Positions 4,142-52,437 of a stretch of 64,000 nt of DNA are shown here, piece after piece. Location of the stretch: contig CAYQRU010000001.1 of assembly GCA_964419945.1 (NCBI GenBank), positions 29,441 through 93,440 on the forward strand. The letters run 5' to 3'. Position 1 is the first letter of the stretch. Each line of letters starts with the position of its first letter. The stretch comes from an uncultured Bacteroidales bacterium. GTDB lineage: Bacteria; Bacteroidota; Bacteroidia; Bacteroidales; JAAYJT01. A program made the position numbers and the translations under genes. A model generated the notes under the pieces. It was not told the DNA's origin and made no database searches. It saw only the letters and a list, made by a program, of their open reading frames with translations.

Positions 4142-4568
4142 ACGATTCTAATATTTTTCAGTGTTAATCAGTGATCTCGAAATGCAGTCAATTAATCAGT
4201 TTCAGGGTGATAACTATATACCTGACATGATACAATATCATATGCTATCAATTGACTGAGCTTTTCCTGTACTTAAAATTGAAGTCAATTTTACCGTTTG
4301 AAACTTATTTTTAATTCTTCCTATGCGGATGGTAAACTAGATAGTGAACCACCCGCCTTTTTGTTATTTGTTAACGAAATGTTAAATTTTTCAGCAGGCT
4401 CAAAATGAAATTACCCCTATACATTGAATATCAGCTTTTTAATATTTTGTTTTAAAAATTATTTAGAAACATTATTAATAACCTATTGTTTACGGCGGTA
4501 TGGTTTAATTACAGGTATTATCACCCCCTTAGTTCTACCGTTTGTCTAACCAAAAAACAAAATCTGTT

Positions 4569-35000: not shown

Positions 35001-38000
35001 CGGTTACTGTGGGGCTAGAAGGTTTTGCACTGCCTGCAGGAGTTGCCAATATTGCAACATCGGTTAACAGCCTGAACTTTGGTAATGTGATCAACGGCAC
35101 ATCCAAAACAGTATCTCTTTTTATTATTAATACAGGAACTTCGGCTCTCACCGTCAGTAATATCACGTCAGGCAATGCTGTTTTTTCTGTTAGTCCGACT
35201 GCGTTTACTTTGCCGAATACCAATGATATACGGGAAGTATTTGTAACATTTCAACCGGGAAACAAAGGTCTTTTCAGTGCTCTGCTGACTATCTCTTCCA
35301 ATGCTCCTCAAAAACAGATAAGCCTTTCAGGAATAGGATTTGACAATCACTTTGGAATTACAGAACCTACCGGAATACCTTACACGATTATCGTTCAGCA
35401 GACAAACCTGCAGGGATCAATCTTACCTGGGGATGAATTATCGGTTTTTGATGGTGGATTGTGCGTAGGCATGGTAAACAGTTTTACCGGATCAAATACG
35501 CAGTCGGTCAGATTTAACGGGAGCAACGCTTATCTCCAGGTTCCGAATACCGCTTCATTGAATCCTGCTGCAATAACAGTTGAATCCTGGGTTAAAACAA
35601 CTGATGGTGGTGCGTCAAGATCCATTCTGAGTAAAACGAATGGTTGTGCCAGTTCTGGATATCTCATGTGGTTGAACCAGAATGGGGTTGGAGCCGGCAA
35701 ACCCGGTTTCTGGGTGGGTGATGGCCCCTGGCTTGATGCAAATGTAACCGTTCACGACGGCCAATGGCACCATATAGCCGGTACTTTCGACGGAACAACT
35801 GCTAGGATCTATGTGGATGGTGTGTTGAGCAATTCAAGGGTTTCAACTGAGAACCTCTCGTCTTCCAATGCTTTGCAGATTGGAGGTTCTACCTATTGCG
35901 GAAACTTGCTGAACGGAAATATTGATGAGGTCAAAATCTGGAATTATGTCCTTACACCTCAACAGGTTCAGCAATCTATGAACAGCATTCCACAGGCAAA
36001 TTCAGCAGGTCTCGTTGGATATTGGCCGTTTGAAGGAGATTTCGACGATAAATCGCTCAGTAATCACCACACACAGGTACTGGGATCACCGGTTTTTGAA
36101 ATCATTGCCCCTCAACTGCTTAATGAACTTGAAATGATTATCGTTGCCTGGCAGGCCGATCCCGGCAACAATCTTCCGGGATATACTCCCGGTAATCCCA
36201 TGTCATTCAAATTATGGACTGGCATAAATGGTTTCCCGACCGAGTTAACTGCATCGGCAAATTATATAATTGGTGATGGTACTTTTGGTTTTGGGCAATT
36301 CTCGATCGTGAACCTGGATTTTAACCTTCCTGCAATTAATGTTGATCCGGAAGAAATTTTTGTTGCCCTGGCCGAGCCTGACTCAACAGAAGTTACCCTC
36401 ACAATATACAATACCGGAACCGGTGACCTGCGGTTCAGCTTACCTGATCCATTCACCAACGGAAAGTTCAGGGCTTCTTATTATTACAGTCCCGGCACCG
36501 GGGCATCACCGAACTTTGGAACTTTCATGTTTGAGATTGATGACGAATATATTGATAGTAGCTGGGGAAATGGTGGACCCGGTAACGGTGTTGGCAACGA
36601 CGATTTTCAGATAAAATGGATAGGTAAGATATATGCTGAAAGTGCCGGAAATTACCAGTTCAGAAGCTACACGGATGATGGGCTGAGATTATATATTGAC
36701 GGGCAGCCCGTTATTAATCAATGGTATGACATGGCTACAACGAATCACTATGGCACGGTTAGCCTTTCCCAGGGTTTTCATGATCTCGAATTTCATTATT
36801 ATGAAAATGGTGGATGGGCTGATGCCTATCTGTACTGGACCCCACCCGGTCAGGCAGAAGAACTGGTTCCTGCAGCAAATCAAAGTTGGATGAGTATCTC
36901 ACCCTCATCGGGTATAATCGCTCCTGCTCAGTATGTTGAAATTACAATCTCCTTTAATTCCACCGGCTTGATAGATGGTTTATACGCTGCTGATTTGTTG
37001 ATTGTCAACAACACTTCCACACAATCACCGCTTGTTGTTCCGACCCTCATGAATGTTACGGGCACTCCTCAGATCTCATCATCTTTACCTGAAGTAAATT
37101 TTGGCCAGGTGGTTGTAAACAGTACGTTGGAAAAGAGTTTGAATATTATGAATATCGGTACCCAGGCTCTTATCATACAGGATATTTTTGTTCAGGATGA
37201 GATAAACAGCGGATTTACTTACCAATTGAATGATAAATCTTTTCCTTTAAGCATTGATCCGGGGCAATCCATTGTTACTGTTATTGCTTTTACACCTTTA
37301 TTGCCCGGTGAAGTAAATGATACCCTGATGATATTATCAAATGCCGGGAATGCTGAAACCTATTTAATTCCACTGTCGGGTTCAGGGATCACCCCACCTG
37401 AGATTTTTCTGACCGAAACTGTTTTTGAGTTATCCTATGTATGCAATGACCAGTTCACCGATTCTCTGAAAATATTCAATTTCGGCCAGGACACTTTAAG
37501 TGTTAGCATGAGTTCTGATCAAACCTGGCTTGCTACTAATCCCGTTCAGGCTCATATTGCCGGCGGTGACAGTATCAGTGTTACAATACACATTTCAACA
37601 CTTGATTTATTTGCGGGTGTTCATGAAGCTTTCCTGAGTATCCAGTCGAATGACCCCGGCCAGCCACTCCTGGAAGTGTTATGCACATTAACGGTTACAG
37701 GCGATCCAGCCATCCTTTGCAACGATTTTCTGAACATGGGCTCAGCAAACATTGGCGATACTTTAGTGGGTCAACTGACAGTAGCTAACAGCGGTTGCGA
37801 TGTACTCGAAGTATTTTCGGTTGGGATTCAAAGCCAGTTTCCGGTATTTTCGGTGCTGAATCCTGCTTTTGAGGTGCAGCCTGGTGATGCAGCTATTTTG
37901 CAGATCGCTTTCGTTCCATTGGCTTCAAATCAGTATAATGCCATCATCACCATCAACACCAACGATCCGGCAACTCCGGCTTTTGATGTTGTTGTATCGG

Positions 38001-41000
38001 CAACGGGGATTGAACCTCCAAAACTATCAGTTATTCCACAGAATATATCAGAAATATTACAGTCAGGCACTACCGGACAGGAATCTTTCAGCGTTAAAAA
38101 CACAGGTGGCCAGGTGCTTGAATTCAGTACTGTCAAAGATCCGGTAAATCCTTTTATGCTCCACCTCGATGGCAATGGCGATTATATCAATGTTGTGCAT
38201 GCTCCGGCGCTGAATCCCACTCAGGAGATAACACTTGAAGCATGGATTTACCTGATTGATAATGTGAACGAATTCATAATAGGGAAGGAAAATTCAACCG
38301 AGGGCAAATACCGTCTTTTGGTGAACAGCAGCAGTCGCCTGGAGTTCAAACTTAACAATCTGCATGTTATCACTTCAAACACTGTTGTCGTTAAAAATCA
38401 GTGGTATCATGTGGCAGCGACCTTTGACGGATCTACCATGCGGATTTTCATCAATGGTGTTCAGGATGTTGTTCAAACATTTGACCCGTTCACCATCGAG
38501 CCCAATACGGATAACCTCCGGATTGGAAGGTCATACCAGTTTCACTACTTCTATGGCAGGATTGATGAGATTAGGATATGGAGCATTGCCAGAAATCAAT
38601 CAGAAATTCAAAGCGCTATGTACCAGCATCTACTGGGTTCCGAACCTGAATTGCTGTTGTATTTCCCTATTCTGAACTTAACCGGAAGTATTGTTACTGA
38701 TGCTTCAAACAATCCGCATAACGGAATTTTGTTTGGCAATCCGGTAATATTGGGTGCAACTGTTCCATTTACAGATTATCTCACAATCTCAAACGGAAAC
38801 GGAAACCTGACTGCCAACCAGCAGCAAAATGTACTGCTCAGTTTGGGTACCGCCGGGTATTTTGCACGCAACTATCAAAGGCAGCTTTCTGTGAGCAGCA
38901 ATGCCGTCATTAACCCGGTGCAGCAGGTTACGCTTGACTTTACCATTGAAGGAAGCAGCAATATTGTTCCCAATCCTGCACAGATTACCTTTGAGGATAC
39001 TTATATAGGATTAATGGACACTTTGGAACTCATTCTTCCAAATTCAGGCGCAATGGCCGCCGGCATAACTGAAATATCGTTCAGCTCTCCGGTTTTTTCT
39101 GCGCCTGTTCCGGTCAGCAAGGTTTTCCCGTTTTCACAACGTACACTGCTGATTGTTTTTGAACCCCAACTGGTGCAGTTGTATGAAGCAACTCTGACCA
39201 TATCAACCTCAGACGGGAAATCACAACAGATTGAAATTCCTCTCACTGGTTTAGGTCTTAGTCCGCCTGTACCTGATTTTTCACCGGTTGCTGCAAACTT
39301 TGGTCAGGTTGTCATAAACAACACAAGTGTTGTTGGGATCACTCTGTCCAATCTGGGCAATCCACCTTTGGAAGTTTATTCTTATTCATTTTCTGATCCT
39401 GCTTACTTCAGCAGTGACCTGGCGGTTCCTTTCGCATTGAATTTTGAACAGCAGGTGCAGTTTAATGTTTCGTTTACCCCACTTAATTATAATGCTATCA
39501 GTGAATCAATGGTTTTCAATACCAATGTGGGTCAGGTCAGTCTTCCTCTCAGCGGTACGGGAACACCACCGGATCATGATCTTGCAATCACACAGATTAT
39601 ATCTCCGCAAAGCGGATGCGGATTAAGTGCTTCAGAAATAGTAACTGTAAGAATAAGAAATTTCGGGATGCTTCCGCAAAACAATTTTGATGTCGCATAT
39701 TCACTGAATAATGGCGCTGATGTTGTTGAAACGGTGAATCAAACCATTCTATCCGGCGATGTACTTAATTATATATTTTCCCAAACCCTTGATCTTGCTG
39801 TGACAGGAGGTTATGGACTGCGTGCATTCACAATGCTGGGATCAGATCAAAACAAAGCAAATGATACATTAAGTGTCACCATCACCAATTCACCATCAGT
39901 AGGCATGATAAGTGATATGTTGCCGCCTGACAGCACATTCAGTGTTTCAGAACCTGTGGTGTTTTCATGGAATCCTGCGGCAAATGCCACTTTTTATGAT
40001 CTCTACCTCTGGCGCACCAACCAGCAGAAGCCCTCAATACCCACAGTTTCAGGTATTACAGCAACTACATACACCTACCTTGATTACCTGAATAAGAATT
40101 ATCTGTATAAGTGGCAGATTGTAGCCCGCAACCAGTGCTCGCAGAGCTTAAGCCCAATCCATGTATTCTCATTCAATGTTTTCAGCGATCTTATGGTTAC
40201 CTCTGTTGACGCTCCGGTCACGGCAACTTCAGGGCAGCCGGTAAACATCTCCTGGAATGTTAAAAATTTCGGAACGGGCGGTACGGGCATCATACCCTGG
40301 AAAGATGATGTGTACCTTTCGCCATCAACATTCTTTGATGTGAATACGGCCGTAAAAGTAGCTTCGCTGAGTAATCTGTCGGCACTGGTACAAGGTCAGA
40401 GTTATACCAATACGACAACCATTACGCTCGATCCATATCTGAATGGAAATCACTATGTATTTGTGCGAACTGACGTTAACAACACCATACAGGAGGTGAA
40501 CGAGAACAACAATATACAGCGCACAGAGAATCCAATGCTCGTCAGCCTGCCGCCTTATCCTGACCTTGCTGTTGGCAACATACAGTCGCTGGGTGGAAAC
40601 ATTATCCCGGGTCAGCAACTGACTGTTGGCTGGACTGTTGGAAATACCGGCGATGCTTCAGCTATTGGAGGTTGGAGCCAGCGTGTGGCGATTGTGTCAG
40701 ACGCACAGACATATGTTCTTGGTTTTGTTCAGAGCATTGAAAGCCTCGATCCACTTGTTGAGTTGAACCTTAGCTCCACCTTTATGGTACCCCATCAGTT
40801 GGGAATGGACGGGGAAGTATATCTGCAGGTTCGGATCACACCAAATCCTGCACTAATTGAGAAGCCCAATGCAACAGCTAACAACACAGCATTGAGCAAT
40901 CAGGGAGTATTGCTTGAACAGCGACTTTTCCTGTCTCTGCCACAGCCAACGCTTCCTGAAAACGCCGGCTCACCCATACAATGCATAGTCAACAGGAGCG

Positions 41001-44000
41001 GAAGCAGGGCAAGTGCACTGAGTGTGAGTTTTGATGTTTCTCAGGAGAACAGAATTACCATTCCGGCTTCAGCGATTATTCCGGCAAACCAGGCAGGAGC
41101 TGCTTTTCAGGTCGCTGCAATCAACAACACCTGGATAGAAGGAAACATTGATGTGGTAATAACGGCTTCAGCCGCCGGCCATCCTGATGCTATTGCAAAT
41201 CTTGCTGTTATTGACGATGAGGTACCTTCGCTAAACTTGAATTTGAGCGTTGGCAGCGCAAACGAAGGTGATACCTTCCAACTGACACTTACAAGGGATG
41301 TGGTTTCGGCCAATCCTTTGAATGTTATGCTGTCTGTCAGCAAGGCCAATCAACTTGTATTACCTGCCAGCATGACAATTCCTGCCAATGAGGCTTCGGC
41401 AGTTATGTCGGTTGAGGTGATAAACAACAGCACACCTGAACTTACTGAGGCTGTTGCCATCAATGCCTCAGCGGTTGGATTTATACCTGCCACTGCAAAT
41501 ATTACCATTCTTGACGAGGATATACCGCAGCTTTCACTCACCATTATTCCCTCTGTGGTTTCTGAAGGAGCTGGCCCTTATGCTTCCTGGGCAACACTGC
41601 AATTGAATTCTCCTGTCATTGCCAATCTTATTGTGGTTATTTCTGCCGAAACAGCAGGCCAGCTATTCTTTCCCTCATCTGTAAGCTTTGCTCCGGGGCA
41701 AATTCAGAAGCAGTTCAATATCGGGGTGGTTGACAATGGAATACTCGATGGTGACAGAACTGTCGCTGTGACGGCTGCTGTGTTTATTTCGTCATGCAAT
41801 TGTGGCGCTCCCCCCGAAACCGGAGGAGCTGATACTCAAAATATTAACATACTTGATAACGATGGTTTGTCGCTTTCGGTAAATTCAACGCCATTTTTGG
41901 TACCTGAAAATCAAACTAACGCAGGATTGCTCACCATCACGAGAAATACAACTGGAGGCCCGCCAATCGCTGTAAATATTCAGCATAATGGCCCAAATGA
42001 AATATTGCTGCCGTCTTCTGCTGTGATTCCTGAAGGAGCTACTTCCGTGAATGTTCCGTTCAGCACACTCGATGATGGGATCAGCGATGGCGATCAGGTC
42101 GTTACAATTTCTGTTACATCCCCCGATTTTACTCCCGGATCGTGTTGGATCATTGTTACTGACAAAAACCTGCCTGATTATGTTGCTCAGGAGCTTACCT
42201 TATCGCAGGCTGAAATCCTTATCAATGATTCTGTGGGTATGAGCATTTGGATCGCAAACAAGGGCTTTGCCCCGGCACCCGCCAACGCCGAAGTCAGGTT
42301 TTACAGATCAGCCAACAACCACCTCGATAACAGCGATCTTTTAATTGCAACCCAAAACATCCCGGCTATTCTGAATTTAGGCGACTCCGTCCAGATTGGA
42401 GCATTCTATAAACCAGTGGATGTTGTGGGCAATTTCTTTATCATTGCATCGGTAAACATGAACGGGACAATTACCGAATTGATCGGGATTAATAATACCT
42501 CATCCGCAGTGCCATTTGCTATCCTTCCCGATTATACAGCTACGGCCTCAGTAGCTGGCGATGTTTTCAACGGCACTGCGCCCATTATCATCACCGGCAC
42601 CACACAAACCGTAACCAGAGGTCCGGTACCCAACAAGGCTGTGGATGTTTACGTGGTTGTTAACGGTACCCGGCGCGTGCTTAATGCGGTAAGTGATCAG
42701 AATGGGACATTCAGTTTGAATTTTATTCCATTGAACGGCGAAGGAGGTGCATACCATGTTGGTGCCTGCTATCCGGGTCAGAATCTGGATGTGGCACAGG
42801 ATGAATTCACAATCCTTGCTGCCCGGCACAATGCTTCAGGTTATATTATCTGGAATATGTGGCTAAACGAAACAAGGGATTTTACACTTGAATTAATGAA
42901 TATCAGCCCGCTCGGACTGAACAATCTTCAACTCGAGGTATTATCTGGCCCCCCTGGTTGTATAGTAAATTTTACACCTTTGAGCTTACTTCCTGGCAAC
43001 GCGACAGCTCTGTTGAATTATTCCGTAACCGCTACTGAAGTTACAACCGGTACGCTCTATGAAGAAGTTAAACTGCAACTTACCAGTGCGGAAGGCACTA
43101 AATTCAGGTTCAGTGCCTGGTTTTTCAGCCAGGCAACCATGGGAAACCTGAAACTTACTCCTGCCTCTCTAAACAAGGCAATGGTCACAAATGCCATCAA
43201 TTATGCTGAATTTGAAATACTCAATAACGGTTTGGCTGAAACCGGGCAAATAACCATTCAATTGCCTCAGGCCAACTGGCTTTCCCTGGCCAGCCCCCCA
43301 ACCATTGAATCACTCATGCCCGGGCAAAAAGCGATAGTAACGCTCAAACTCATGCCCGGCAGCGATTTGCAACTGAATAATCCGATCAGTGGTCAGATTG
43401 CTTTATCCGGTACGAACTCAAACAGTGTTCTGTTACCCTTTTTATTCGAACCCGTTTCGCTTGAAACCGGCAACCTGCTGGTGGATGTGGTGGATGAGTA
43501 CACATACAACACTGTCGCTGCACCCCATTTGCAGGGTGCAACGGTGACGCTGTCGCATCCTTACAGCGGTCAGGTGATTGCACAGGGTATAACAGATGAG
43601 AACGGGCATTTTCTTGCAGAAGGTATCTATGAAGGTACTTATATGTTGCATGTGCAGGCTCCGCAACATGCCAGCTATCAGAATATCGTTTTTATTGAAA
43701 AGGGTGTAACCAGGACTCAACTGGTGTTCATCGCATTCCAGGCTATTACGTATACCTGGCAGGTAGTTCCTACCTTGATTCAGGATCAGTATGAAATAAA
43801 ATTAATCACTGTTTTTGAAACCAATGTACCCGCTCCGGTGGTTGAGATGAACATGCCGGATACACTCCCTCAACTGGGTGTTGGAGAGGTATTTCCATTC
43901 CTCCTCACGCTTACAAACCGCGGGTTGATCACCGCACAGGATGTAGAGATAACATTTCCGGATGATGAGGAATATATGTTTATCGCCAATGTCAATACCC

Positions 44001-47000
44001 TTGACATTCTTCCCAACACATCCGTTCAGATACCTGTTCTCATGAAGCGAAAACCTGATGTAAAATTATCAGGTCGCAGCCTTAATTGCACCGACATAAC
44101 AATTACGAAATACAAATTTGAGTGCGGTCCCGACAACCAGATGCGGGTAGTGGCTGCCTGGAGTATTTATCTTGGCAGGGTTTGTTCAGGTCCGGGTGGA
44201 CCGTCAATACCCTTTTATTGGCCAGTTTTTCCAGGTGGAGGAGGGGTGGGTCCCGGAGGACCCGGTGGAGGTTCTGGCCCGGGATGGGGCCCGGGTTTAG
44301 GACCTTCAACTCCTTACCAAAGCAGCAATACCGGGTGCGATCCATGTATTGCCGAAGCTTTAAACTGTGCACTTGACTGCATTAATCCCATTCCTCCCGT
44401 TCTCGACTGCGGTGCAGATGTATATGCCAATGGCCTGAATTGGTCCAATGGCATTTCGTGTTTCTGGGGACTTGTTGACACCTTCTCAGGTGGATCATTT
44501 GGCTGTGCCTGGTGTATCGGCACAACCATTGGTTGTTTCATCAACCAGGCAATCGGCAATACCAAAGCTGCAGCAGGAAGCCGATATCCTGCCGAACTTG
44601 AGCAGGCATTTGAGGATATGGAAATGCTCGACAAAGCTTTTACTGCCATTGAAAATGCCGCAAAAGAAACCTGCGGGAACGATGATCTGGTTGTCAGGGA
44701 ATTTTTTGGTTCGTTTAAAGATTCAGTTGCACAATATATTGATACTGAAACCCCGATCAATCTTCAGGCACAAAACGATTTGCTGATTTATTTTGCCGGC
44801 AGTGATATTACTGAATCAGAAATTCTTGATTTCATCACTTACTGGAACACCACGCTTCAGGCCCGCGCACTCGGCGTGTACTCTCCATCTCCGGAGTTTC
44901 CTCATATCATTGACACACTTCTGCTGCATCATTATCAATTGCAGCTCGACACAGTAATCCAGTACACAAAAGCCCGGGGTTATAATTCTATTGACCAACT
45001 GTATAATCAAGCAGCAGAAATTTATGCCGGCTATTTACAGGCAAAAAATTCGGCTGTTTGCGCCACAGTAACAGTAGAGTTTTCTCAAACCCTGACAATG
45101 ACCCGGGAAGCCTTTGAGGGAACACTGACCATCTTTAATGGCCATGAAACCGATGCCATGGAAAACATTATGCTTGCACTCGAGATTAAGGATGAAGATG
45201 GAGCAATCAAAAACGATCTGTTCCAGATAAATACGAAATCACTCAATCAAATATCCGGAATTGATGGCTCAGGTATTTTGGAAGCTCTTACTGAGGGTAC
45301 GGCGGTAATTACTTTTATTCCTGAAAGGGGAGCCGCTCCTGATGTACCAAAGTACTATTCCTTTGGCGGAACACTGTCTTACCTCGATCCGTTTACAGGC
45401 GAGATTTTTGAACAACAACTGTTTCCGGTTACACTTCAGATTAATCCAAGTCCTGACCTGTATATTGATTATTTTATGCAGCGTGATATTTTAGGTGACG
45501 ATGCTCTCACACCTGATATCGAGCCCATGGTTCCAGCTGAACTCGCGGTGATGATTGATAACAGGGGAACAGGAACTGCGTATAGCGTAAATATCGAATC
45601 TGCCCAACCCAGAATCATTGAAAATGAAAAAGGACTGCTGATTGATTTTCAGATCGTTGGATCAAACCTGAGTGGAAAACCCAGGCAACTTGGTTTACTG
45701 AATGTTGACTTTGGAGATATTCCTGGTGGCGAAATTGCCATAGGCCAGTGGTGGTTTACGAGTACGTTGCTCGGGCACTTTATTTCTTATGAAGTGTCAA
45801 TCAACCACCTGAACAGTTTTGGAAATCCTGATTTGAGTCTTGTAAGCAGCGTGCAGGTACATGAATTGATCAGGGGCGTAAGTGTGTACGGGCCACCTGA
45901 CGACAGCATCAGCGATTTTCTGGTTAATGATATACCTGATACGCATGACATCCCCGACGCATTATATTATTCGAACGGCGCCATTGCCCAGGTTTATCAG
46001 GCAACTGCATCGCAAACCGATGGCCAGGTCAATATGAGCAACCTGGAAATCCAGCTCACAGTTACACCTTTTACAATGGGATGGAATTACACCAAACTGA
46101 ACGATCCGGGCAACGGACTTTTCCGGATTATCAGTTGCACCCGCCAGGATGGCCAGGTCATCCCACTTGATAATATCTGGCTTACCCACGTTACCATTCC
46201 TGACGGCGGGGAACCGGTTTATGAGAACAAACTGCATTTCCTCGACTACTTTAGCTCGACGGTTCCTTATAGTTATACTGTTGTTTTTGAACCGGGAAAT
46301 CTTGATGTGCCCGAAGTAGTTGCCATCACTGGAATTCCTGCCGGAATCACTGACACACCGGTTATAAATATTGAGGTGGTATTCAATAAGCCCATTGACC
46401 CAGCAACCTTCGACTACGAAGATATGGTACTCAGTAACCAGGGAGGTCCAAACATGATGGACAACTCGGTGATCGTTTCACAGGTTAATGATACTGTTTT
46501 CAATGTGGATATTTCTACCAAAACCACAGCCAACGGTTTTTATGCACTTACCGTTCAGGCAGCCGGCATCGCTGATCTGATGGGTAACTTTGGCCAGGTG
46601 GGAAAACAGGTTACCTGGGTTCAGGCACTGTCAACTCCTGCCATAGTTCTCTTTATCGGACTGCCGGAGGACGGACATCCCATTGATTCGCTTCTTGTTA
46701 TGTTTAACATGCCAATTAATCCGGCCACCTTCACAACAGCTCAGCTGGTATTGACCGGACCTGACGGAATACTAATTCCTGCTGAATCATTGGTGATTTC
46801 GGACGCAAGTATCAACAACATGTTGTTTAAGATCAGCGGATTACTTCCTCTCACATCAGATGATGGTAATTATCAGCTTTTATTTAAACTCACAGAGATT
46901 CAGGGCGAGAATGGAGTAAGTGGCTTGCTTGACCAGCCAGCACAATGGACAGTTTGCCAGGTACCGCCGCCCGCTGCCAATGCAGGGGAAAATGCCACTA

Positions 47001-48787
47001 TTTGCAGCGATCAGACTTATCAGCTAAGTGGGCTTGTTGAAAATGCAGATTCGTTTGCATGGTCAACCTCCGGAACAGGTACATTTGATAACAATCAGGT
47101 CCTTAATCCGGTTTATACACCCAGCCTGGCCGATAAGATTACAGGTGTGGTTCATCTCACACTTACAGCACAGCCACTGCATCCCTGTGCTCCTGTTGCT
47201 ACAGATGTGATGACGCTATATATCACTCAAACCGTTGTAAATTCAGTAAGCGTCAGGGCATCAGCAAATTATATCTGTTCCGGAACAAATGTTGTCTTTA
47301 CAGCTACACCGATTAATGGAGGTTCACAACCAACCTACCAGTGGAAACTGAATGGTGAAGTTGTCGGAACAAATAGCATCATTTATGAAAACAGTAATCT
47401 CTCTGATGATGATGTTGTACAGGTCGTGATGATTTCTTCCCTGCCATGTCCACGCCCGGAAGAAGCCATTTCGAATGCAATAACCATGATTGTATATCCT
47501 TTGATTCATCCTGAGGTAACTCTCACTGCAACTGCCACTGAAATTGTTGAAGGGACCAATGTGATATTCACAGCCACGCCAACCAACGGAGGTATCGAAC
47601 CTTTTTATCAGTGGTTACTTAACGGCAATGCAGTTGGGAGTTATTACAACACATTCGAAAGCAATACCCTGCAGCACGGCGATCAGATTCAGGTATTGAT
47701 GGATTCAGATCTTCCCTGCGCCGTTAATCCTGCCGTTTCGAATATAATTCAGATGACGGTGAATCCTGATACTACTGTGCGATGTCCGGCTGTTGTGGTG
47801 ACTTCAATATACCATCCTCCTTTCCTGCTTGAGGTTTCATTACCTGAAGGCGGTACCTATAGCGGACCGGGTGTAAGCGGTAATATATTTAATCCGGTTA
47901 CGGCAGGTTTGGGAATCCACGTGATAACATACACCTATATCAATCCGGAAACCAACTTTACCAAGAACTGCAACTTCCCACTGGTTGTCAATGATTTGCC
48001 TTTGTCAGTGCCACTTCAAAACATGCTTGTTTCGCATTACAGTGATGTATGTTTTGCAGCCATGCAGACGATAAGCCTTGCCGGTGATGGAACCTACTTT
48101 ATTATTGCTGATAATGCGCAAGCAGAATTTACTGCTGGCAAAAATATTTTATTGCTGGAGGGAACACACGTCAATGCTGGCGCACATGCGATCTTCAGGA
48201 TCGAAACAGGCAACGGCTTTTGCGAACCACATCAGACTCTGGTGCTTCAAAACCACACGCTTACGGGCACGGTTGATACCTGCTTCGCTTCACAGGAGGT
48301 GATATCCCTTGCTGGAAATGGAACAATCTTCATTGTTGATAATGGTGTAATAGCTGAATTTGAAGCCGGAAAACTTATCAGTATGAACGATGTAACACAT
48401 GTTAAAGCCGGAGCTTATGCCCTCTTCAGGATTGAAACCGGTGATGACTTCTGTACCAATTCACGTTCTGTTGTTGCTGGGAGCGATGTAAAACCTGAAG
48501 AAAAAATTATCGGGGACATGAACCACTACCCAAATAGCGCTTTTGAACCTCAGCCTTTCATAATATATCCGAATCCAACCACCGGAATTTTCAACATTGA
48601 ATTTTCTGAACCGGTTACAGATGCTTTCATCGGAATTTATACCATGTTAGGCCAGAAGGTTCTGATCCGGCATTCTGAAGGATCTTCGCACATTGAACTC
48701 AATCTTGCTGCCCAGCCGAAAGGCATTTACATCATTCGCGTTATACAGGGAGAAGCACATCATTCTAAACGGTTGATTAAAAATTAG
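32006..48787 (+). CDS. Giant secreted mosaic surface protein of 5593 aa. It is T9SS cargo and a paralog of the 4569-22604 product.
   Basis: The ATG start gives the signal peptide MNANNINIKNRLLSTIVLLMLIAGAQTAFSQ. By eye: 4 LamG units (2 of them nested inside another module); ~10 choice-of-anchor-D/ASH-like units (LNFGxVxxxxSxxxxLxIxNxGxxxLxI...FxP...G); one canonical PA14 (FQIKWIGKIYAESAGNYQFRSYTDDGLRLYIDGQPV); and CARDB. From 39897 onward it is colinear with gene A through Calx-beta, the Cys-rich linker, the core, Ig units, a duplicated pre-CTD module and the T9SS CTD (IIYPNPTTGIFNIEF...GIYIIRVIQG). Confidence 0.9.
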   Translation: MNANNINIKNRLLSTIVLLMLIAGAQTAFSQNFALNFDGNGDFVNFGNPSGLQITGNQTIEMWIYPTALDARRNPVAKAYGGEGTVTLETDGSLSYYYGTGGGNNNPYQGIGSTPIQANTWTHIAIVRDLTTMRLYWYINGNQVVHIPAQFSYAQSSTLPFYIGRGYVSDFKGMIDEVRIWNVARSASEIVAFKSVGLTGSESGLAAYWPFDEGSGTIISDNTSSGNNGTLNGNTGFVASTAPIIPYQPGGEPFEPVPPTGLPYTIVLSNLTINGEDISYGTQIAVFDDELCVGTTFYDGEPNQSLIAWEADPGQNLAGFTAGNPMSFKFHAAWYSEPVNFDADVTIMKGDGNFGYETFSVVNLNAITTLAPEIMLSAELMNFNAVIVNQSISLPLAFENTGTANLFIGSMQNNTTFFTRSATSLLIEPGTRDTLWITFTPLSVTTYSDILTFVTDDPGLPSVTIPLHGTGLPVPTPQITVTPLNLNFGSIAMNTSKTMVINILNSGNGNLLITNVTSSNTAFSVLGNTAFSLGQNENINVAMSFAPVQAGAYTGQLTIQSNAQNITVPLSGIALQGHFSVVSPTGKPYAVIVENVDIDGFSPLTTDEVAVFDGELCVGVGSYAQGGNSLQLSGNGYVINNNSNAFDLQQLTISAWVYSSNFNQNGFVFEKGPVNSQYSLFFEGSNINFRTYHTSGGYDDFYLNWSSIGIQNNKWNHITATYDGVHKRMYVNGQLKAILSYNKTLRTGQVGQIIGAYGGSGSNSYFFNGNIDEVRVWNHARSVFQIQKEMYRQLVGNEPGLVGYWNFNDGNINNLVAGSTPSYLSGNANTQGIQNIEILTKLMITAWEKDLQLGLPGYTSGNPMSFKVWTEVYDNWVEVETIPEYIVGDGNFGFGQLSIVNLEGTSGLQPDIDVAVENIYVGQVTVGSSVQSILQVTNQGNAPLQIYVSDNSDVFSTDIGNTTIAPLSATNIQVTFAPATAGGYAGLLTISANDPDQPTVTVGLEGFALPAGVANIATSVNSLNFGNVINGTSKTVSLFIINTGTSALTVSNITSGNAVFSVSPTAFTLPNTNDIREVFVTFQPGNKGLFSALLTISSNAPQKQISLSGIGFDNHFGITEPTGIPYTIIVQQTNLQGSILPGDELSVFDGGLCVGMVNSFTGSNTQSVRFNGSNAYLQVPNTASLNPAAITVESWVKTTDGGASRSILSKTNGCASSGYLMWLNQNGVGAGKPGFWVGDGPWLDANVTVHDGQWHHIAGTFDGTTARIYVDGVLSNSRVSTENLSSSNALQIGGSTYCGNLLNGNIDEVKIWNYVLTPQQVQQSMNSIPQANSAGLVGYWPFEGDFDDKSLSNHHTQVLGSPVFEIIAPQLLNELEMIIVAWQADPGNNLPGYTPGNPMSFKLWTGINGFPTELTASANYIIGDGTFGFGQFSIVNLDFNLPAINVDPEEIFVALAEPDSTEVTLTIYNTGTGDLRFSLPDPFTNGKFRASYYYSPGTGASPNFGTFMFEIDDEYIDSSWGNGGPGNGVGNDDFQIKWIGKIYAESAGNYQFRSYTDDGLRLYIDGQPVINQWYDMATTNHYGTVSLSQGFHDLEFHYYENGGWADAYLYWTPPGQAEELVPAANQSWMSISPSSGIIAPAQYVEITISFNSTGLIDGLYAADLLIVNNTSTQSPLVVPTLMNVTGTPQISSSLPEVNFGQVVVNSTLEKSLNIMNIGTQALIIQDIFVQDEINSGFTYQLNDKSFPLSIDPGQSIVTVIAFTPLLPGEVNDTLMILSNAGNAETYLIPLSGSGITPPEIFLTETVFELSYVCNDQFTDSLKIFNFGQDTLSVSMSSDQTWLATNPVQAHIAGGDSISVTIHISTLDLFAGVHEAFLSIQSNDPGQPLLEVLCTLTVTGDPAILCNDFLNMGSANIGDTLVGQLTVANSGCDVLEVFSVGIQSQFPVFSVLNPAFEVQPGDAAILQIAFVPLASNQYNAIITINTNDPATPAFDVVVSATGIEPPKLSVIPQNISEILQSGTTGQESFSVKNTGGQVLEFSTVKDPVNPFMLHLDGNGDYINVVHAPALNPTQEITLEAWIYLIDNVNEFIIGKENSTEGKYRLLVNSSSRLEFKLNNLHVITSNTVVVKNQWYHVAATFDGSTMRIFINGVQDVVQTFDPFTIEPNTDNLRIGRSYQFHYFYGRIDEIRIWSIARNQSEIQSAMYQHLLGSEPELLLYFPILNLTGSIVTDASNNPHNGILFGNPVILGATVPFTDYLTISNGNGNLTANQQQNVLLSLGTAGYFARNYQRQLSVSSNAVINPVQQVTLDFTIEGSSNIVPNPAQITFEDTYIGLMDTLELILPNSGAMAAGITEISFSSPVFSAPVPVSKVFPFSQRTLLIVFEPQLVQLYEATLTISTSDGKSQQIEIPLTGLGLSPPVPDFSPVAANFGQVVINNTSVVGITLSNLGNPPLEVYSYSFSDPAYFSSDLAVPFALNFEQQVQFNVSFTPLNYNAISESMVFNTNVGQVSLPLSGTGTPPDHDLAITQIISPQSGCGLSASEIVTVRIRNFGMLPQNNFDVAYSLNNGADVVETVNQTILSGDVLNYIFSQTLDLAVTGGYGLRAFTMLGSDQNKANDTLSVTITNSPSVGMISDMLPPDSTFSVSEPVVFSWNPAANATFYDLYLWRTNQQKPSIPTVSGITATTYTYLDYLNKNYLYKWQIVARNQCSQSLSPIHVFSFNVFSDLMVTSVDAPVTATSGQPVNISWNVKNFGTGGTGIIPWKDDVYLSPSTFFDVNTAVKVASLSNLSALVQGQSYTNTTTITLDPYLNGNHYVFVRTDVNNTIQEVNENNNIQRTENPMLVSLPPYPDLAVGNIQSLGGNIIPGQQLTVGWTVGNTGDASAIGGWSQRVAIVSDAQTYVLGFVQSIESLDPLVELNLSSTFMVPHQLGMDGEVYLQVRITPNPALIEKPNATANNTALSNQGVLLEQRLFLSLPQPTLPENAGSPIQCIVNRSGSRASALSVSFDVSQENRITIPASAIIPANQAGAAFQVAAINNTWIEGNIDVVITASAAGHPDAIANLAVIDDEVPSLNLNLSVGSANEGDTFQLTLTRDVVSANPLNVMLSVSKANQLVLPASMTIPANEASAVMSVEVINNSTPELTEAVAINASAVGFIPATANITILDEDIPQLSLTIIPSVVSEGAGPYASWATLQLNSPVIANLIVVISAETAGQLFFPSSVSFAPGQIQKQFNIGVVDNGILDGDRTVAVTAAVFISSCNCGAPPETGGADTQNINILDNDGLSLSVNSTPFLVPENQTNAGLLTITRNTTGGPPIAVNIQHNGPNEILLPSSAVIPEGATSVNVPFSTLDDGISDGDQVVTISVTSPDFTPGSCWIIVTDKNLPDYVAQELTLSQAEILINDSVGMSIWIANKGFAPAPANAEVRFYRSANNHLDNSDLLIATQNIPAILNLGDSVQIGAFYKPVDVVGNFFIIASVNMNGTITELIGINNTSSAVPFAILPDYTATASVAGDVFNGTAPIIITGTTQTVTRGPVPNKAVDVYVVVNGTRRVLNAVSDQNGTFSLNFIPLNGEGGAYHVGACYPGQNLDVAQDEFTILAARHNASGYIIWNMWLNETRDFTLELMNISPLGLNNLQLEVLSGPPGCIVNFTPLSLLPGNATALLNYSVTATEVTTGTLYEEVKLQLTSAEGTKFRFSAWFFSQATMGNLKLTPASLNKAMVTNAINYAEFEILNNGLAETGQITIQLPQANWLSLASPPTIESLMPGQKAIVTLKLMPGSDLQLNNPISGQIALSGTNSNSVLLPFLFEPVSLETGNLLVDVVDEYTYNTVAAPHLQGATVTLSHPYSGQVIAQGITDENGHFLAEGIYEGTYMLHVQAPQHASYQNIVFIEKGVTRTQLVFIAFQAITYTWQVVPTLIQDQYEIKLITVFETNVPAPVVEMNMPDTLPQLGVGEVFPFLLTLTNRGLITAQDVEITFPDDEEYMFIANVNTLDILPNTSVQIPVLMKRKPDVKLSGRSLNCTDITITKYKFECGPDNQMRVVAAWSIYLGRVCSGPGGPSIPFYWPVFPGGGGVGPGGPGGGSGPGWGPGLGPSTPYQSSNTGCDPCIAEALNCALDCINPIPPVLDCGADVYANGLNWSNGISCFWGLVDTFSGGSFGCAWCIGTTIGCFINQAIGNTKAAAGSRYPAELEQAFEDMEMLDKAFTAIENAAKETCGNDDLVVREFFGSFKDSVAQYIDTETPINLQAQNDLLIYFAGSDITESEILDFITYWNTTLQARALGVYSPSPEFPHIIDTLLLHHYQLQLDTVIQYTKARGYNSIDQLYNQAAEIYAGYLQAKNSAVCATVTVEFSQTLTMTREAFEGTLTIFNGHETDAMENIMLALEIKDEDGAIKNDLFQINTKSLNQISGIDGSGILEALTEGTAVITFIPERGAAPDVPKYYSFGGTLSYLDPFTGEIFEQQLFPVTLQINPSPDLYIDYFMQRDILGDDALTPDIEPMVPAELAVMIDNRGTGTAYSVNIESAQPRIIENEKGLLIDFQIVGSNLSGKPRQLGLLNVDFGDIPGGEIAIGQWWFTSTLLGHFISYEVSINHLNSFGNPDLSLVSSVQVHELIRGVSVYGPPDDSISDFLVNDIPDTHDIPDALYYSNGAIAQVYQATASQTDGQVNMSNLEIQLTVTPFTMGWNYTKLNDPGNGLFRIISCTRQDGQVIPLDNIWLTHVTIPDGGEPVYENKLHFLDYFSSTVPYSYTVVFEPGNLDVPEVVAITGIPAGITDTPVINIEVVFNKPIDPATFDYEDMVLSNQGGPNMMDNSVIVSQVNDTVFNVDISTKTTANGFYALTVQAAGIADLMGNFGQVGKQVTWVQALSTPAIVLFIGLPEDGHPIDSLLVMFNMPINPATFTTAQLVLTGPDGILIPAESLVISDASINNMLFKISGLLPLTSDDGNYQLLFKLTEIQGENGVSGLLDQPAQWTVCQVPPPAANAGENATICSDQTYQLSGLVENADSFAWSTSGTGTFDNNQVLNPVYTPSLADKITGVVHLTLTAQPLHPCAPVATDVMTLYITQTVVNSVSVRASANYICSGTNVVFTATPINGGSQPTYQWKLNGEVVGTNSIIYENSNLSDDDVVQVVMISSLPCPRPEEAISNAITMIVYPLIHPEVTLTATATEIVEGTNVIFTATPTNGGIEPFYQWLLNGNAVGSYYNTFESNTLQHGDQIQVLMDSDLPCAVNPAVSNIIQMTVNPDTTVRCPAVVVTSIYHPPFLLEVSLPEGGTYSGPGVSGNIFNPVTAGLGIHVITYTYINPETNFTKNCNFPLVVNDLPLSVPLQNMLVSHYSDVCFAAMQTISLAGDGTYFIIADNAQAEFTAGKNILLLEGTHVNAGAHAIFRIETGNGFCEPHQTLVLQNHTLTGTVDTCFASQEVISLAGNGTIFIVDNGVIAEFEAGKLISMNDVTHVKAGAYALFRIETGDDFCTNSRSVVAGSDVKPEEKIIGDMNHYPNSAFEPQPFIIYPNPTTGIFNIEFSEPVTDAFIGIYTMLGQKVLIRHSEGSSHIELNLAAQPKGIYIIRVIQGEAHHSKRLIKN
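39897..48787 (+). repeat. Colinear paralogous segment of ~8.9 kb (C-terminal ~2963 aa of giant B) matching 13953-22604. It carries one extra pre-CTD module copy.
   Basis: See the partner segment. The extra ~73-aa module lies at 48236-48455. Confidence 0.9.
48550..48784 (+). other. Type-A T9SS CTD of giant B.
   Basis: PQPFIIYPNPTTGIFNIEFSEPVTDAFIGIYTMLGQKV...KGIYIIRVIQGEAHHSKRLIKN. Confidence 0.85.
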
Positions 48788-50310: not shown

Positions 50311-52437
50311 TCATTGTGCAAGGATTATATTTACCATGTTTGTGATATCTAGCAGATCAATGTTTCCGCTTGCATTTATATCGGCCTGGTTCACACAAAA
50401 CGGTTGGGGATCATTACCCAGGATTTGACTGATGACAACGATTACATCCATGGTGTTTACCATTCCGTCGCAATTGGCATCGCCCACCAAACCGGATGTT
50501 GATTGCAATGCAATTTGAAATGAACCAGTATGAATCTCAATGGGTTCTAGAGAGTAGTGCTGTGCTCTCAGGCTTCCAAACGATATCAAAACTTGCCGTA
50601 AATCACCGGGCATAACCGCTTCTGAAAGCATGAACTGAAGCATTCCAATTTTTCCGAATCCTGAAATTTGCTGATGATTGTTACGGGTAATTCCTATGTC
50701 GGTAATTCCTGTATTAGCCTGATGCATTACCAGCGACCAAACGCTGCCGTTAAGTTCGCCCATCCAGTTTTCCTGCTGATCAAAAACGGTACTACCAGAA
50801 ACAACAGCCGGAGAATCAATAAAAACGCTGAACCGTATGCCATAAAGGTTATCAATGGGTTTTTCCTGCGACCCTAAATAAACGGGTATCTGAACCTGGA
50901 CGCTATCCAAAAGCTCGGCTTCGGAAGGCACAATGTAGAGATCATACACATTAACCGGGGTAGCTGGCGCGATAGAATTTATTGATATTGCCTTATGATT
51001 GAAGCCATAATTTTGGATGATGGCCATGGTATCATTGATATTTACCATGCCATTGCCATCGGTATCTGCATGTTTGTAGTTAATACCGGTAACTACCGTA
51101 TCAGCCCAATCGGTGGCATATTGCGGGAACCAGTCAAGAGAGGCATTTACCCTTGCCGAACCGTTAGCTCCTGCCGTTACGCCCAGCACAAGGAGGTCGT
51201 CAATGTTCACGGTGCCATCGTAATTTATATCACCTGGCCATACATAATCAATGCCAATACCATTGACAACTCCTGCTGAGTCAGATTTTAAAACAAAAAG
51301 ATCCTGTTCTCCGGCAATCATGTATTCGTTGATCTCGCCAGCCATCACAAATCCTCCATCGCCTGTGGCCCGCATTTTAGTGATGTTGATTGACGAATCG
51401 GAAGCCATGATCATATCACGTCCGATAAATGTACCATTACTGTCGAGCCTGAGCAGAGCTGATTTAAAAAATAAAGATCCGGCCCCCTGAAAACGCTTTT
51501 CTGTCACGAGATACTCTCCGTTTCGCCAGGGTATAATATCCATTGCCTGGGTGTTGAACGGATAGTCAGGATAATTTTTTGACCATAGTACATTGCCTGC
51601 AGCATCCACGCGCATAACGCTGGAATGTTCGGAATTCGGGCTTGAAAACCCGGCAAGTACATAGCCACCATCAGGCAGTTCCTTTACCGACTGTGCGCCT
51701 CGCATCAGTTGGCCGGGCGCATTGTACAGCCTTGTCCATACCGAATCGGCATTCATGTCAAATTTCCACAAAAATGCTTTTGAACTGCTACCCGATCCTG
51801 CTGTGCCTGTGAGCATGAACCCTCCATCGGAGGTAGGCTCAATGGCCGACACAAAAGTTCCGGAGTACCATCCCGGCAATACAACAGGATTCAGCAGCCT
51901 CTGCTCAAGTAAAAACCCATCCTGTGAAATGATAAACATGCGTGGTCTTGCGCCGATGAATCCTTCACCTCCAATGACGATAATCGTGCTGTCGGGCAAG
52001 ATGGTTCCATGCGCAATCAAAGCCGAATTCATCGGTAATATATTCGTCCATTGCGAAGTCCAGAGGGTGTCGCCCGATTGATTGAGTTTTACCAGCCACG
52101 GTGCGCGATTATTGGTAGCAATTCCAACAACAATATAATTTCCATCAGGAGTTTCTAACACTGAGTAGGCATTTTCGGAGTAATTATCCTTACTGATGCT
52201 GCGCTCCCATTGCAACATGCCAGCTTCATTCAGCTTTACAATATAATAATCAGACGTAAAACCTTGATTACCATAGCCTGCAACAATATAACCCTGATCG
52301 GTGGTTTGCCGGATATCGGTGGCAAATTCAGGCCCCGAACCGCCAAAAAATGCTGACCAGGGAAATTGCTGGCTAAATGATGAAGGTGTAAAATAATCAA
52401 GAAGAAGTATAGCAAGAAAAAGGGTGGGTCTTTTCAT
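50311..52437 (-). CDS. Secreted beta-propeller-like repeat protein with an internal dockerin, a cohesin-like beta-sandwich module and a C-terminal dockerin (708 aa).
   Basis: Signal peptide MKRPTLFLAILLLDYFTPSSFSQ. N-terminal repeats are of the type DGGYxxxGxxxx...xxxKLxxxGxxxW. Internal dockerin: GDINYDGTVNIDDLLVLGVTAG ... ADTDGNGMVNINDTMAIIQNYG. A ~165-aa segment (VQVQIPVYLGSQEKPIDNLYGIRFSVFID...GKIGMLQFMLSE...) looks cohesin-like. C-terminal dockerin: GDANCDGMVNTMDVIVVISQILG ... ADINASGNIDLLDITNMVNIIL. Confidence 0.8.
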   Translation of the reverse strand: MKRPTLFLAILLLDYFTPSSFSQQFPWSAFFGGSGPEFATDIRQTTDQGYIVAGYGNQGFTSDYYIVKLNEAGMLQWERSISKDNYSENAYSVLETPDGNYIVVGIATNNRAPWLVKLNQSGDTLWTSQWTNILPMNSALIAHGTILPDSTIIVIGGEGFIGARPRMFIISQDGFLLEQRLLNPVVLPGWYSGTFVSAIEPTSDGGFMLTGTAGSGSSSKAFLWKFDMNADSVWTRLYNAPGQLMRGAQSVKELPDGGYVLAGFSSPNSEHSSVMRVDAAGNVLWSKNYPDYPFNTQAMDIIPWRNGEYLVTEKRFQGAGSLFFKSALLRLDSNGTFIGRDMIMASDSSINITKMRATGDGGFVMAGEINEYMIAGEQDLFVLKSDSAGVVNGIGIDYVWPGDINYDGTVNIDDLLVLGVTAGANGSARVNASLDWFPQYATDWADTVVTGINYKHADTDGNGMVNINDTMAIIQNYGFNHKAISINSIAPATPVNVYDLYIVPSEAELLDSVQVQIPVYLGSQEKPIDNLYGIRFSVFIDSPAVVSGSTVFDQQENWMGELNGSVWSLVMHQANTGITDIGITRNNHQQISGFGKIGMLQFMLSEAVMPGDLRQVLISFGSLRAQHYSLEPIEIHTGSFQIALQSTSGLVGDANCDGMVNTMDVIVVISQILGNDPQPFCVNQADINASGNIDLLDITNMVNIILAQ
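50314..50484 (-). other. C-terminal dockerin module of the 708-aa protein, paralogous to 24761-24940.
   Basis: GDANCDGMVNTMDVIVVISQILGNDPQPFCVNQADINASGNIDLLDITNMVNIILAQ. It shares the linker (N/D)PQPFC(F/V)N.AD(V/I) with the 744-aa protein. Confidence 0.75.
50494..50994 (-). other. Cohesin-like beta-sandwich module between the two dockerins.
   Basis: YDLYIVPSEAELLDSVQVQIPVYLGSQEKPIDNLYGIRFSVFIDSPAVVSGS...ISGFGKIGMLQFMLSEAVMPGD...IEIHTGSFQI has the alternating beta pattern and the xVxVxVxL...IxGxxFxIxYD-like layout of cohesins. This was judged by eye only. Confidence 0.4.
51004..51234 (-). other. Internal dockerin-like module with a long inter-repeat insert.
   Basis: GDINYDGTVNIDDLLVLGVTAG, then a 31-aa insert, then ADTDGNGMVNINDTMAIIQNYG. 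Confidence 0.65.

Follow-up and report, generated by a model that had tools for sequence, protein, structure and literature searches.

Saposin-like proteins comprise saposins A–D, NK-lysin, and surfactant protein B, together with the plant-specific insert of aspartic proteases. Elastomeric linkers of the GPGGX type occur in flagelliform silk and in resilin-like sequences. Cox17, COA6, and Cox12 are examples of CHCH proteins, which are small proteins of the mitochondrial intermembrane space imported via Mia40. The CHCH (twin-CX9C) architecture consists of two CX9C or CX10C motifs in a disulfide-joined helix-turn-helix, and CX9C–CX10C variants exist (PMC7909247). Here, we describe a Cys-rich insert, predicted to be all-α, that bears comparison with these modules and lies within two paralogous giant surface proteins, A and B, of an uncultured Bacteroidales bacterium (lineage JAAYJT01). 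Both are encoded in a stretch of 64,000 nucleotides, hereafter the window (assembly GCA_964419945.1, contig CAYQRU010000001.1, positions 29,441 to 93,440 of the forward strand). Open reading frame (ORF) A spans 4542–22604 (+; 6020 amino acids, aa) and ORF B spans 32006–48787 (+; 5593 aa). With a probability of about 0.5, we read the insert as a tethered, oxidatively folded accessory that provides a lineage-specific interaction surface beside an invariant core.

Overall Organization of the Insert

A preliminary description of the window had noted, immediately upstream of a conserved core in both proteins, a Cys- and Gly/Pro-rich “disulfide knot” followed by a helical island. This segment maps to aa 4026–4349 of B, with its partner at aa 4534–4850 of A. 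What had appeared as knot plus island is really four pieces: a β-hairpin, a Gly/Pro tether, a hydrophobic Cys-rich four-helix subdomain, and an acidic six-helix bundle. According to the structure models, the latter two form an all-α insertion domain of ~250 aa, which follows a disordered tether of ~50 aa and directly precedes the core. The features of both proteins, with secondary structure as predicted, are located in the window as follows.

43814–44086, + strand: β-sandwich of B ('FETNVP...') preceding the Cys cluster, aa 3937–4027
44087–44185, + strand: terminal β-hairpin of this sandwich in B, 'KFECGPD..GRVC', with C4028, C4040, and C4060, aa 4028–4060
44186–44329, + strand: Gly/Pro-rich low-complexity tether of B (38% G, 23% P), aa 4061–4108
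44330–44575, + strand: hydrophobic Cys-rich helical subdomain of B, C-D-P-C-x10-C...C...C...C-x9/10-C, aa 4109–4190
44576–45052, + strand: acidic six-helix bundle of B, aa 4191–4349
45053–46315, + strand: conserved β core of B, starting with 'AVCATVTVEFSQTLTMTREAFEG' and containing the invariant C4352, aa 4350–4770
18144–18242, + strand: Cys hairpin of A, partner of the B hairpin by alignment, with C4535, C4547, and C4567, aa 4535–4567
18243–18371, + strand: tether of A with an extra CxxC (C4579, C4582), aa 4568–4610
18372–18620, + strand: Cys-rich helical subdomain of A, without the inner pair equivalent to C4135/C4152 of B, aa 4611–4693
18621–19094, + strand: six-helix bundle of A, aa 4694–4851
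19095–20357, + strand: β core of A, counterpart of the B core

Two AlphaFold2 models were used, namely a larger one of 834 aa (B aa 3937–4770) and an insert-only one (B aa 4102–4357) built from a 28-sequence alignment. In the larger model, the sandwich has its strands at model residues 10–79, with predicted local distance difference test (pLDDT) values of ~70–83, and the hairpin strands lie at residues 93–104 and 107–119. The tether is predicted to be disordered (pLDDT 22–44), the six bundle helices occupy residues 260–412 (pLDDT 67–91), and the core is made of β-strands at high pLDDT, one of which contains C4352. The insert-only model (predicted template modeling score 0.73) shows four helices at pLDDT 50–70 in the Cys-rich subdomain and exceeds pLDDT 90 over its residues 90–250. 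The helical part of ~160 aa proposed from the sequence is thus borne out by the bundle, while the segments on either side of the helical part are β. As the predicted fold of the insert is not an Ig or ordinary β fold, the notion of a helical island stands; its boundary with the “knot” was misplaced, since everything from GCDPC onward belongs with the island.

Both the skeleton KFECGPD.QMRVV..GRVC..GCDPC.A..LN.ALDC and, at B aa 4062–4100 (window ~44189–44305), a low-complexity run of the GPGG type occur as originally quoted, and in its family form the Cys-rich subdomain reads C-[DE]-P-C-x10-C ... C-x10-C. Statistics of Cys conservation, co-loss, tether, and hydropathy were drawn from 145 non-identical homologs. 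In this set, the tether measures 23–81 aa (median 46) with a median Gly content of 28% and an identity of ~16%; GPGG/GGGG-type runs are present in 89 of the 145, and two extra tether Cys, mostly arranged as CxxC as in A, are present in 35. The Cys-rich subdomain is hydrophobic, with a median grand average of hydropathy (GRAVY) of +0.45, 28% G+A+S, and a net charge of ~−2, and 67 of the 145 homologs contain a 19-aa Kyte–Doolittle window above 1.6, i.e., of transmembrane grade, within it. The bundle has a median net charge of −15 and is marked by the conserved motifs 'E..[FY]G[DN]..W', 'F..RWN.[ST]', and 'RG[YF]' and by a proline-rich loop, '[ST]P...[YH]P.I[IV][DN]'. The core then opens with a sequence read as 'AVCATVTV..MTREAFEG'.

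Cys Cluster and Putative Disulfide Pattern

Protein B has 12 Cys within 150 aa (4028, 4040, 4060, 4111, 4114, 4121, 4125, 4135, 4152, 4167, 4170, and 4177) and a further one in the helical part (4223), and A has 10 within 143 aa (4535, 4547, 4567, 4579, 4582, 4613, 4616, 4627, 4667, and 4677). These counts are as first reported, and Cys is indeed rare elsewhere, with 44 in the whole of B and 55 in the whole of A (background ~0.6–0.8%). For such clustering, the binomial probability comes to 1.4e-10 in B and 2e-7 in A.

The Cys skeleton is 81–100% conserved in the 145 homologs, so the pattern holds beyond the two proteins in which it was noticed. In the hairpin, C4028 is conserved in 100% and C4040 and C4060 in 99% each. 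In the subdomain, the values are 100% for C4111, 98% for C4114, 92% for C4125, 81% for both C4135 and C4152, 91% for C4167, and 98% for C4177. C4352, at the start of the core, is present in 145/145 sequences. Cys 4121, 4170, and 4223 are peculiar to B or the B clade.

Several of these Cys disappear together. C4135 and C4152 are jointly lost in at least 16 of the 145 sequences, A among them, C4125 and C4167 in four, all four of these residues in six, and C4114 and C4177 in one. The spacing, counted in 106 sequences, is rigid where helices are predicted: C4111-x2-C4114 (consensus C-D-P-C) is found in 99, C4114-x10-C4125 in 100, and C4167-x10-C4177 in 79, with x9 in a further 10, B included. The three intervening loops, in comparison, vary from 5 to 41 aa, and loop lengths of 5 to 58 aa are also recorded. 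Taken with the rigid Cx10C spacing, the paired losses point to an antiparallel pair of helices held by two staples that lie three turns apart, with one further staple across an inner hairpin. We infer a nested, ladder-like connectivity in which C4135–C4152 would lie inside C4125–C4167, and the latter inside C4114–C4177. C4121 and C4170 co-occur in B and in L001, L002, L003, and L011, and their positions add up to 8291, as do those of C4114 and C4177 (8291), next to 8292 for C4125 and C4167. The B-clade pair therefore fits the antiparallel register and may form an extra staple, C4121–C4170.

The number of Cys in the subdomain is odd in 140/145 sequences, and that in the tether is 0 or 2 in 141/145. 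Thus, one subdomain Cys, by elimination C4111, should bond outside the subdomain. Its partner is probably C4040, and such a bond at the hairpin tip would close the tether into a loop. P0114, which has lost the subdomain, retains the C4111 equivalent (the Cys of 'KYCNPD') and the second hairpin Cys (C2), and the insert-less P0010 and P0011 are without C2 and without the CxxC but keep C1, C3, and the core Cys. In the most economical map, C4028 would pair with C4060 and C4040 with C4111, three or four staples would join the helices, and C4352 would be unpaired or buried. In 103/145 sequences, the conserved Cys add up to an odd number, 11, so one of them, probably C4352, is either unpaired or has a partner that was not found. 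C4711 of B was considered as a conserved core partner for C4352 and rejected, as it is not conserved in the consensus.

The term “disulfide knot” does not survive this analysis. The Cys are distributed over the hairpin, the tether (in some homologs), and the helical subdomain, and the putative pairs are nested staples rather than threaded ones. A cystine knot, with 1–4, 2–5, and 3–6 pairing and one disulfide passing through the ring formed by the other two in a compact β-rich unit of 30–50 aa, was rejected in view of the nested pairs suggested across three structural contexts.

Distribution and Evolution of the Insert

When HMMER was run exhaustively with the insert profile, 554 cluster representatives passed E ≤ 1e-3, of which 287 also passed 1e-10 and 58 passed 1e-30. 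A word-indexed search with the insert alignment returned nothing at E ≤ 1e-3, as against these 554, a difference ascribed to tool limitation. The matching representatives are nearly all 2000–7500 aa long and carry the insert mid-chain. In the window, the profile matches once each in A (aa 4605–4860, E 8e-71) and B and nowhere else. In GTDB species genomes (one genome per species), a query alignment joining the insert to the opening 250 aa of the core gave 454 loci, most of them in Bacteroidales (Lentimicrobiaceae, Prolixibacteraceae, Marinilabiliaceae, and Paludibacter) and one in Saprospiraceae. Cultured carriers include Saccharicrinis sp. 156 (L039) and Apibacter mensalis R-53146 (L058), and the insert is also found in one Lentisphaeria protein. 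Among genomes, the nearest relatives are metagenome-assembled ones from Lentimicrobiaceae and other Bacteroidales.

The suggestion that the segment is a discrete cassette is supported by these relatives: the same layout recurs in hundreds of giant proteins, the block can be missing, and it evolves apart from the core. In nearly all relatives, ~87 aa separate the RWN motif of the bundle from the TREAFEG motif of the core downstream. P0010 and P0011, which come from independent assemblies, and P0199 have no insert, and their Gly-rich tether is fused directly to a 'SVC..TREAFEG' core. One subfamily retains only the CxxC plus one Cys, and in other relatives the bundle occurs with no Cys-rich part or behind a different upstream domain. 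From these presence/absence variants, the order of constancy is therefore core > bundle > Cys-rich subdomain. In P0134 (7485 aa), the bundle-plus-core supermodule occurs two or three times, with RWN at 3410, 5092, and 6649 and the motifs of the core at 3500 and 5182.

The constancy of the core and the variability of the insert are also evident from pairwise identities. Between A and B, identity amounts to 66% in the sandwich, 61% in the hairpin, 22% in the tether, 26% in the Cys-rich part, 32% in the bundle, and 87% at the core start. Over the whole core, A and B are 80% identical, and close relatives share 70–87%. Among close relatives, the insert falls into discrete lineages, whereas the core is uniformly similar. 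B and L001, for instance, share 82% identity across the Cys-rich part and 78% across the core, whereas L005 and L001 are 27% identical in the Cys-rich part and 85% in the core. Taking L001 and L011 together, L005 shows 85–87% identity in the core and 26–27% in the Cys-rich part, and B shows 78% and 80–82%, respectively. Such incongruence suggests recombination or cassette exchange among paralogs, or else independent diversification of the insert. Together with the insert-less relatives, it identifies the insert as a discrete, fast-diversifying cassette.

Nonsynonymous differences from the nearest orthologs are 0.12–0.29 per site in every part, and synonymous differences are saturated, so that only the proportions of nonsynonymous and synonymous differences can be compared. 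As the former are far below the latter, the insert is under purifying selection within a lineage.

In both giants, conservation is highest in the core, whose invariant motifs include SVCA[ST]VT, MTREAFEG, YSFGG, NPSPDL, YFMQRD..GDD.LT, GQWWF, and HEL. Its identity between A and B (80%) is slightly above that between B and its orthologs (78%).

Searches for Known Families and Folds

Neither Pfam nor NCBIfam gave a match over window positions 43502–46801, and Pfam searches of 28 insert members at E ≤ 1 yielded scattered single-member noise only. PDB sequence searches with the insert, the Cys-rich subdomain profile, and the core returned no match, and the core by itself has no match in Pfam or NCBIfam either. 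By these searches, the insert and the adjoining core fall outside Pfam, NCBIfam, and the PDB and appear to be so far unannotated. Foldseek searches of the PDB and BFVD with the insert model gave a best E-value of 0.5 and probabilities of at most 0.18, and structures of saposin, colicin, Bcl-2, diphtheria toxin, and Cry were all absent from the matches. The 834-aa model retrieved Ig-like chains at low template modeling (TM) scores only (C3b, α2-macroglobulin, integrin legs, and HYDIN), along with weak matches to diphtheria toxin and Cry toxin chains (probability 0.16–0.25, TM < 0.1).

Particular families were also examined. A saposin profile was assembled from five saposin/NK-lysin sequences and validated against the PDB at E ~1e-30; aligned to it with hhalign, the Cys-rich subdomain reached a probability of 0.1%, and saposin homology was rejected. 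Among the 28 insert members, hmmscan found no SapB_1 or SapB_2 match, and no CHCH Pfam match was seen at E ≤ 1. In the window region and the insert members, there was no match to protease, intein, Hint, SEA, GPS, or FrpC-type families, nor to thioredoxin, DsbA, or other oxidoreductase families. The thioester domain (TED) gave no Pfam match, and the CGEQ thioester motif is absent from A and B. Two readings of bundle motifs were also dropped: 'RWN.[ST]' as an N-glycosylation site, because the motif lies within a helix and is without the bacterial D/E-x-N-x-S/T context, and 'E..[FY]G[DN]..W' as a lysozyme-like catalytic motif, because no fold match was obtained.

Proposed Role and Alternative Explanations

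The N-termini of A and B are both signal-peptide-like. The C-terminus of B matches Por_Secre_tail in Pfam (PF18962, 5e-13) and TIGR04183 in NCBIfam (3.6e-13), and A ends with an 'IYPNPT' tail, as B does. Judged by these features, both proteins carry the N-terminal Sec signal and the C-terminal Por_Secre_tail sorting domain that define type A cargo of type IX secretion (T9SS). T9SS cargo passes through the periplasm, in Bacteroidota a site of disulfide formation, and for this reason the Cys of the insert are read as structural disulfides. For the T9SS machinery itself, published work describes essential periplasmic disulfides.

A and B are exported by Sec and then secreted by the T9SS, and in the mechanism that we propose, the insert Cys would become oxidized in the periplasm before export through the T9SS. 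Oxidation would yield a helical module that is rigid and withstands proteases outside the cell. Through the C4111–C4040 bond, the tether would become a closed loop and the insert would be held next to the sandwich–core junction, and the Gly/Pro tether would supply flexibility to the joint. The insert would thereby lie beside the place where the distal, variable adhesin array meets the invariant core proximal to the anchor. Unlike the core, it is swapped or diversified between paralogs, which is the behavior expected of a part that decides a protein's contacts.

Several points weigh against an interaction surface of this kind. The odd total of conserved Cys could indicate chemistry beyond structural stapling, and the disulfide map is based on co-loss, spacing, and parity. 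The Cys-rich subdomain is modeled at moderate confidence only (pLDDT 50–70), and its hydrophobic character would suit lipid or membrane binding just as well as a buried interface. The fast divergence of the insert could reflect relaxed constraint instead of specificity.

If the hydrophobic character is taken at face value, the insert may be a lipid- or membrane-active module, in which a saposin-like or surfactant-protein-B-like stapled hairpin is solubilized by the acidic bundle and presented by the tether. The giant could then make contact with other cells at their membranes or hydrophobic surfaces, by a logic like that of the hydrophobic hairpin within the helical translocation (T) domain of diphtheria toxin or the colicin pore domain. 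The composition of the subdomain (GRAVY +0.45, 28% G+A+S, charge ~−2, and a window above 1.6 in 67/145) is in line with this, as is its build of ~80 aa and four helices with a CxxC at the start of helix 1 and a putative nested pairing of the 1–6/2–5/3–4 type found in saposin-like proteins. The net charge of −15 of the bundle would suit a solubilizing role, and the 834-aa model did retrieve diphtheria and Cry toxin chains, but only at probabilities of 0.16–0.25 and TM < 0.1. However, the saposin profile–profile probability of 0.1%, the absence of SapB matches (0/28 members), and the Foldseek result for the insert alone (none of the helical toxin or saposin folds, best E 0.5) speak against it, and the hydrophobic helices may instead be buried against the bundle or the core. 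On balance, we regard membrane activity as unlikely. The preliminary description had also offered a hinge or processing site. A hinge remains reasonable for the disordered Gly/Pro tether, whereas processing is not supported. It would imply that the tether is a protease-sensitive loop closed by a bond from C4040 or C4060 to C4111, as in AB toxins, so that after nicking the distal ~4000-aa array and the anchored ~1500 aa would remain joined until reduction; alternatively, C4352 would drive autoprocessing. A disordered loop does lie between invariant Cys, the odd Cys parity would fit a long-range bond or a reactive thiol, and C4352 is found in 145/145 sequences at a domain boundary and is retained in the insert-less variants. 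Yet, with an identity of only ~16%, the tether has no conserved cleavage motif, basic or otherwise, and its Gly/Pro-rich sequence is a poor protease substrate. Moreover, no protease, intein, Hint, SEA, or GPS family was matched, and C4352 lies inside a predicted core β-strand rather than in a loop. Processing is thus quite improbable.

A redox-active or metal-binding center is likewise a reading to which we give little credence. In it, C-[DE]-P-C would carry out thiol exchange like the CPC that precedes the twin-CX9C hairpin of Mia40 and form mixed disulfides with targets, or two CxxC motifs would make a Zn(Cys)4 site. The Cys of the CxxC are 100% and 98% conserved with the consensus CDPC immediately before helix 1, two extra tether Cys, mostly as CxxC, are present in 35/145 homologs, and one conserved Cys is apparently unpaired. 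The tether CxxC, however, is missing from B and from 106/145 homologs and therefore cannot be essential. In addition, Cys are gained and lost in pairs, as structural disulfides are, no His is conserved, the domain is predicted to be all-α rather than a thioredoxin fold and matches no oxidoreductase family, and the route of the protein leads from an oxidizing periplasm to the cell exterior. A still more speculative idea, which we consider very unlikely, is that the insert is an active device: a stapled hydrophobic hairpin beside an elastomer-like loop closed by C4040–C4111, which thiol exchange (via the invariant CxxC or the unpaired Cys), mechanical force, or low pH would open, exposing the hairpin to insert into, or bond covalently to, the envelope of another cell. 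If this were true, opening of the loop would free hidden length, and giant type IX-secreted proteins would be contact-dependent effectors with a swappable, lineage-specific “warhead”. At the other extreme, the segment could owe its composition to chance, or be an artefact of low complexity, and have no specific role, the tether being of low complexity and the insert showing the lowest conservation in the region. This has virtually no probability left and is refuted by the conservation data. The Cys cluster has a chance probability of ~1e-10, conservation of its skeleton across 145 homologs is 81–100%, 287 clusters match the insert profile at E ≤ 1e-10, the fold is confidently predicted in the insert-only model, and nonsynonymous change is far below synonymous change.

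Of all the gene products of environmental and gut-associated Bacteroidota, giant type IX-secreted proteins rank with the largest and the least understood. The present analysis defines a junction that recurs in them, consisting of hairpin, tether, two-part helical insert, and core, and its domain boundaries can be used for expression, structure determination, and annotation.

Genomic Context

The Pfam modules found elsewhere in B are all of β type: Laminin_G_3, ASH/HYDIN-type Ig, PA14, CARDB, CarboxypepD_reg, and Big_5. By these domain types, the remainder of the protein appears to be all-β; the structure models cover B aa 3937–4770. The listed start of ORF A is a TTG (window 4542–4568), and an in-frame Met nine codons downstream (MRNLSTRQF...), before the signal-peptide-like segment, is the more likely start. 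Near the C-terminus of B, at ~47900–48500, a Cys-bounded unit of ~58 aa ('CFAAMQTISLAGDG...FRIETGNGFC') is present in two tandem copies, and A has one copy. At ~48101–48190, the NCBIfam GCX_COOH “3-coathanger stack” gives a weak match, with an E-value of 5.7e-4 that falls below the cut-off.

The neighboring ORFs encode secreted multi-domain proteins, namely propellers, two of them with dockerins, and a β-helix protein. A flanking cargo gene at 5–4141 (+) encodes a PQQ_2/DUF5122 β-propeller protein with a Por_Secre_tail, and the gene at 25549–31923 (+) encodes a protein of 2124 aa with a β-helix (NosD-like), LamG, and fn3. As these flanking genes encode large secreted proteins, the giants belong to a cluster of such proteins. 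Two propeller proteins, at 22709–24943 (+) and 50311–52437 (−), terminate in Dockerin_1 (E 2.6e-4 and 2.5e-9, respectively), unlike the other secreted proteins of this genome segment, which have type IX sorting tails.

Comparison with Known Systems

Several described systems share aspects of the layout. In the TED of α2-macroglobulin and C3, a helical domain is likewise embedded in a long chain of β-sandwiches. One relative of the giants has an upstream MG2 Pfam match, and C3b and bacterial α2-macroglobulin were among the weak Foldseek matches (TM ~0.1). The TED, however, is an α/α toroid of ~300 aa set in a CUB domain, whereas the insert has ~160–250 aa and six plus four predicted helices and is not in a CUB domain. 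The diphtheria toxin offers a similar order, in which a Cys-flanked flexible loop is followed by an all-α domain with hydrophobic and acidic amphipathic helices and then by a β-sandwich; yet the giants have no furin-like site and no catalytic domain, and in the insert the hydrophobic helices come first and appear to be stapled. The tether recalls elastomeric linkers in its GPGG/GGGG runs, interspersed aromatics, predicted disorder, and variable length, but it is only 23–81 aa long, has no regular repeat, and is possibly a disulfide-closed loop.

The Cys-rich subdomain itself resembles saposins in its size of ~80 aa, its four helices (predicted at pLDDT 50–70; saposin-like proteins have four or five), a CxxC that opens helix 1, and its putative nested connectivity. 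It also shares the hydrophobic character of surfactant protein B and, like the plant-specific insert of aspartic proteases, would form a helical island in a β-rich protein. Its Cys spacing is x10/x10, in contrast to x2 ... x5 in saposins, and it has seven conserved Cys instead of six.

The likeness to CHCH proteins is of a similar kind. The subdomain has two C-x(9-10)-C motifs, one in each of two predicted helices (residues 12–23 and 63–84 of the insert model), and the co-loss of C4125 with C4167 and of C4114 with C4177, together with the register sums, suggests that these helices are antiparallel and linked by two disulfides. Oxidative folding, as proposed for the insert, would take place in a comparable compartment, the periplasm, and the additional Cys motif just N-terminal of the first Cx10C recalls the CPC of Mia40. 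On the other hand, the insert is part of a bacterial extracellular T9SS protein of 5600–6000 aa rather than a small eukaryotic protein, it would have a third, inner stapled hairpin between the two Cx10C helices, and the second Cys of its CxxC is also the first Cys of a Cx10C. Collectively, the CHCH and saposin parallels are best regarded as resemblances in construction, analogies rather than signs of family membership. If the disulfide map is correct, the insert would represent a bacterial, extracellular counterpart of the twin-Cx10C staple, which is otherwise known mainly from mitochondria.

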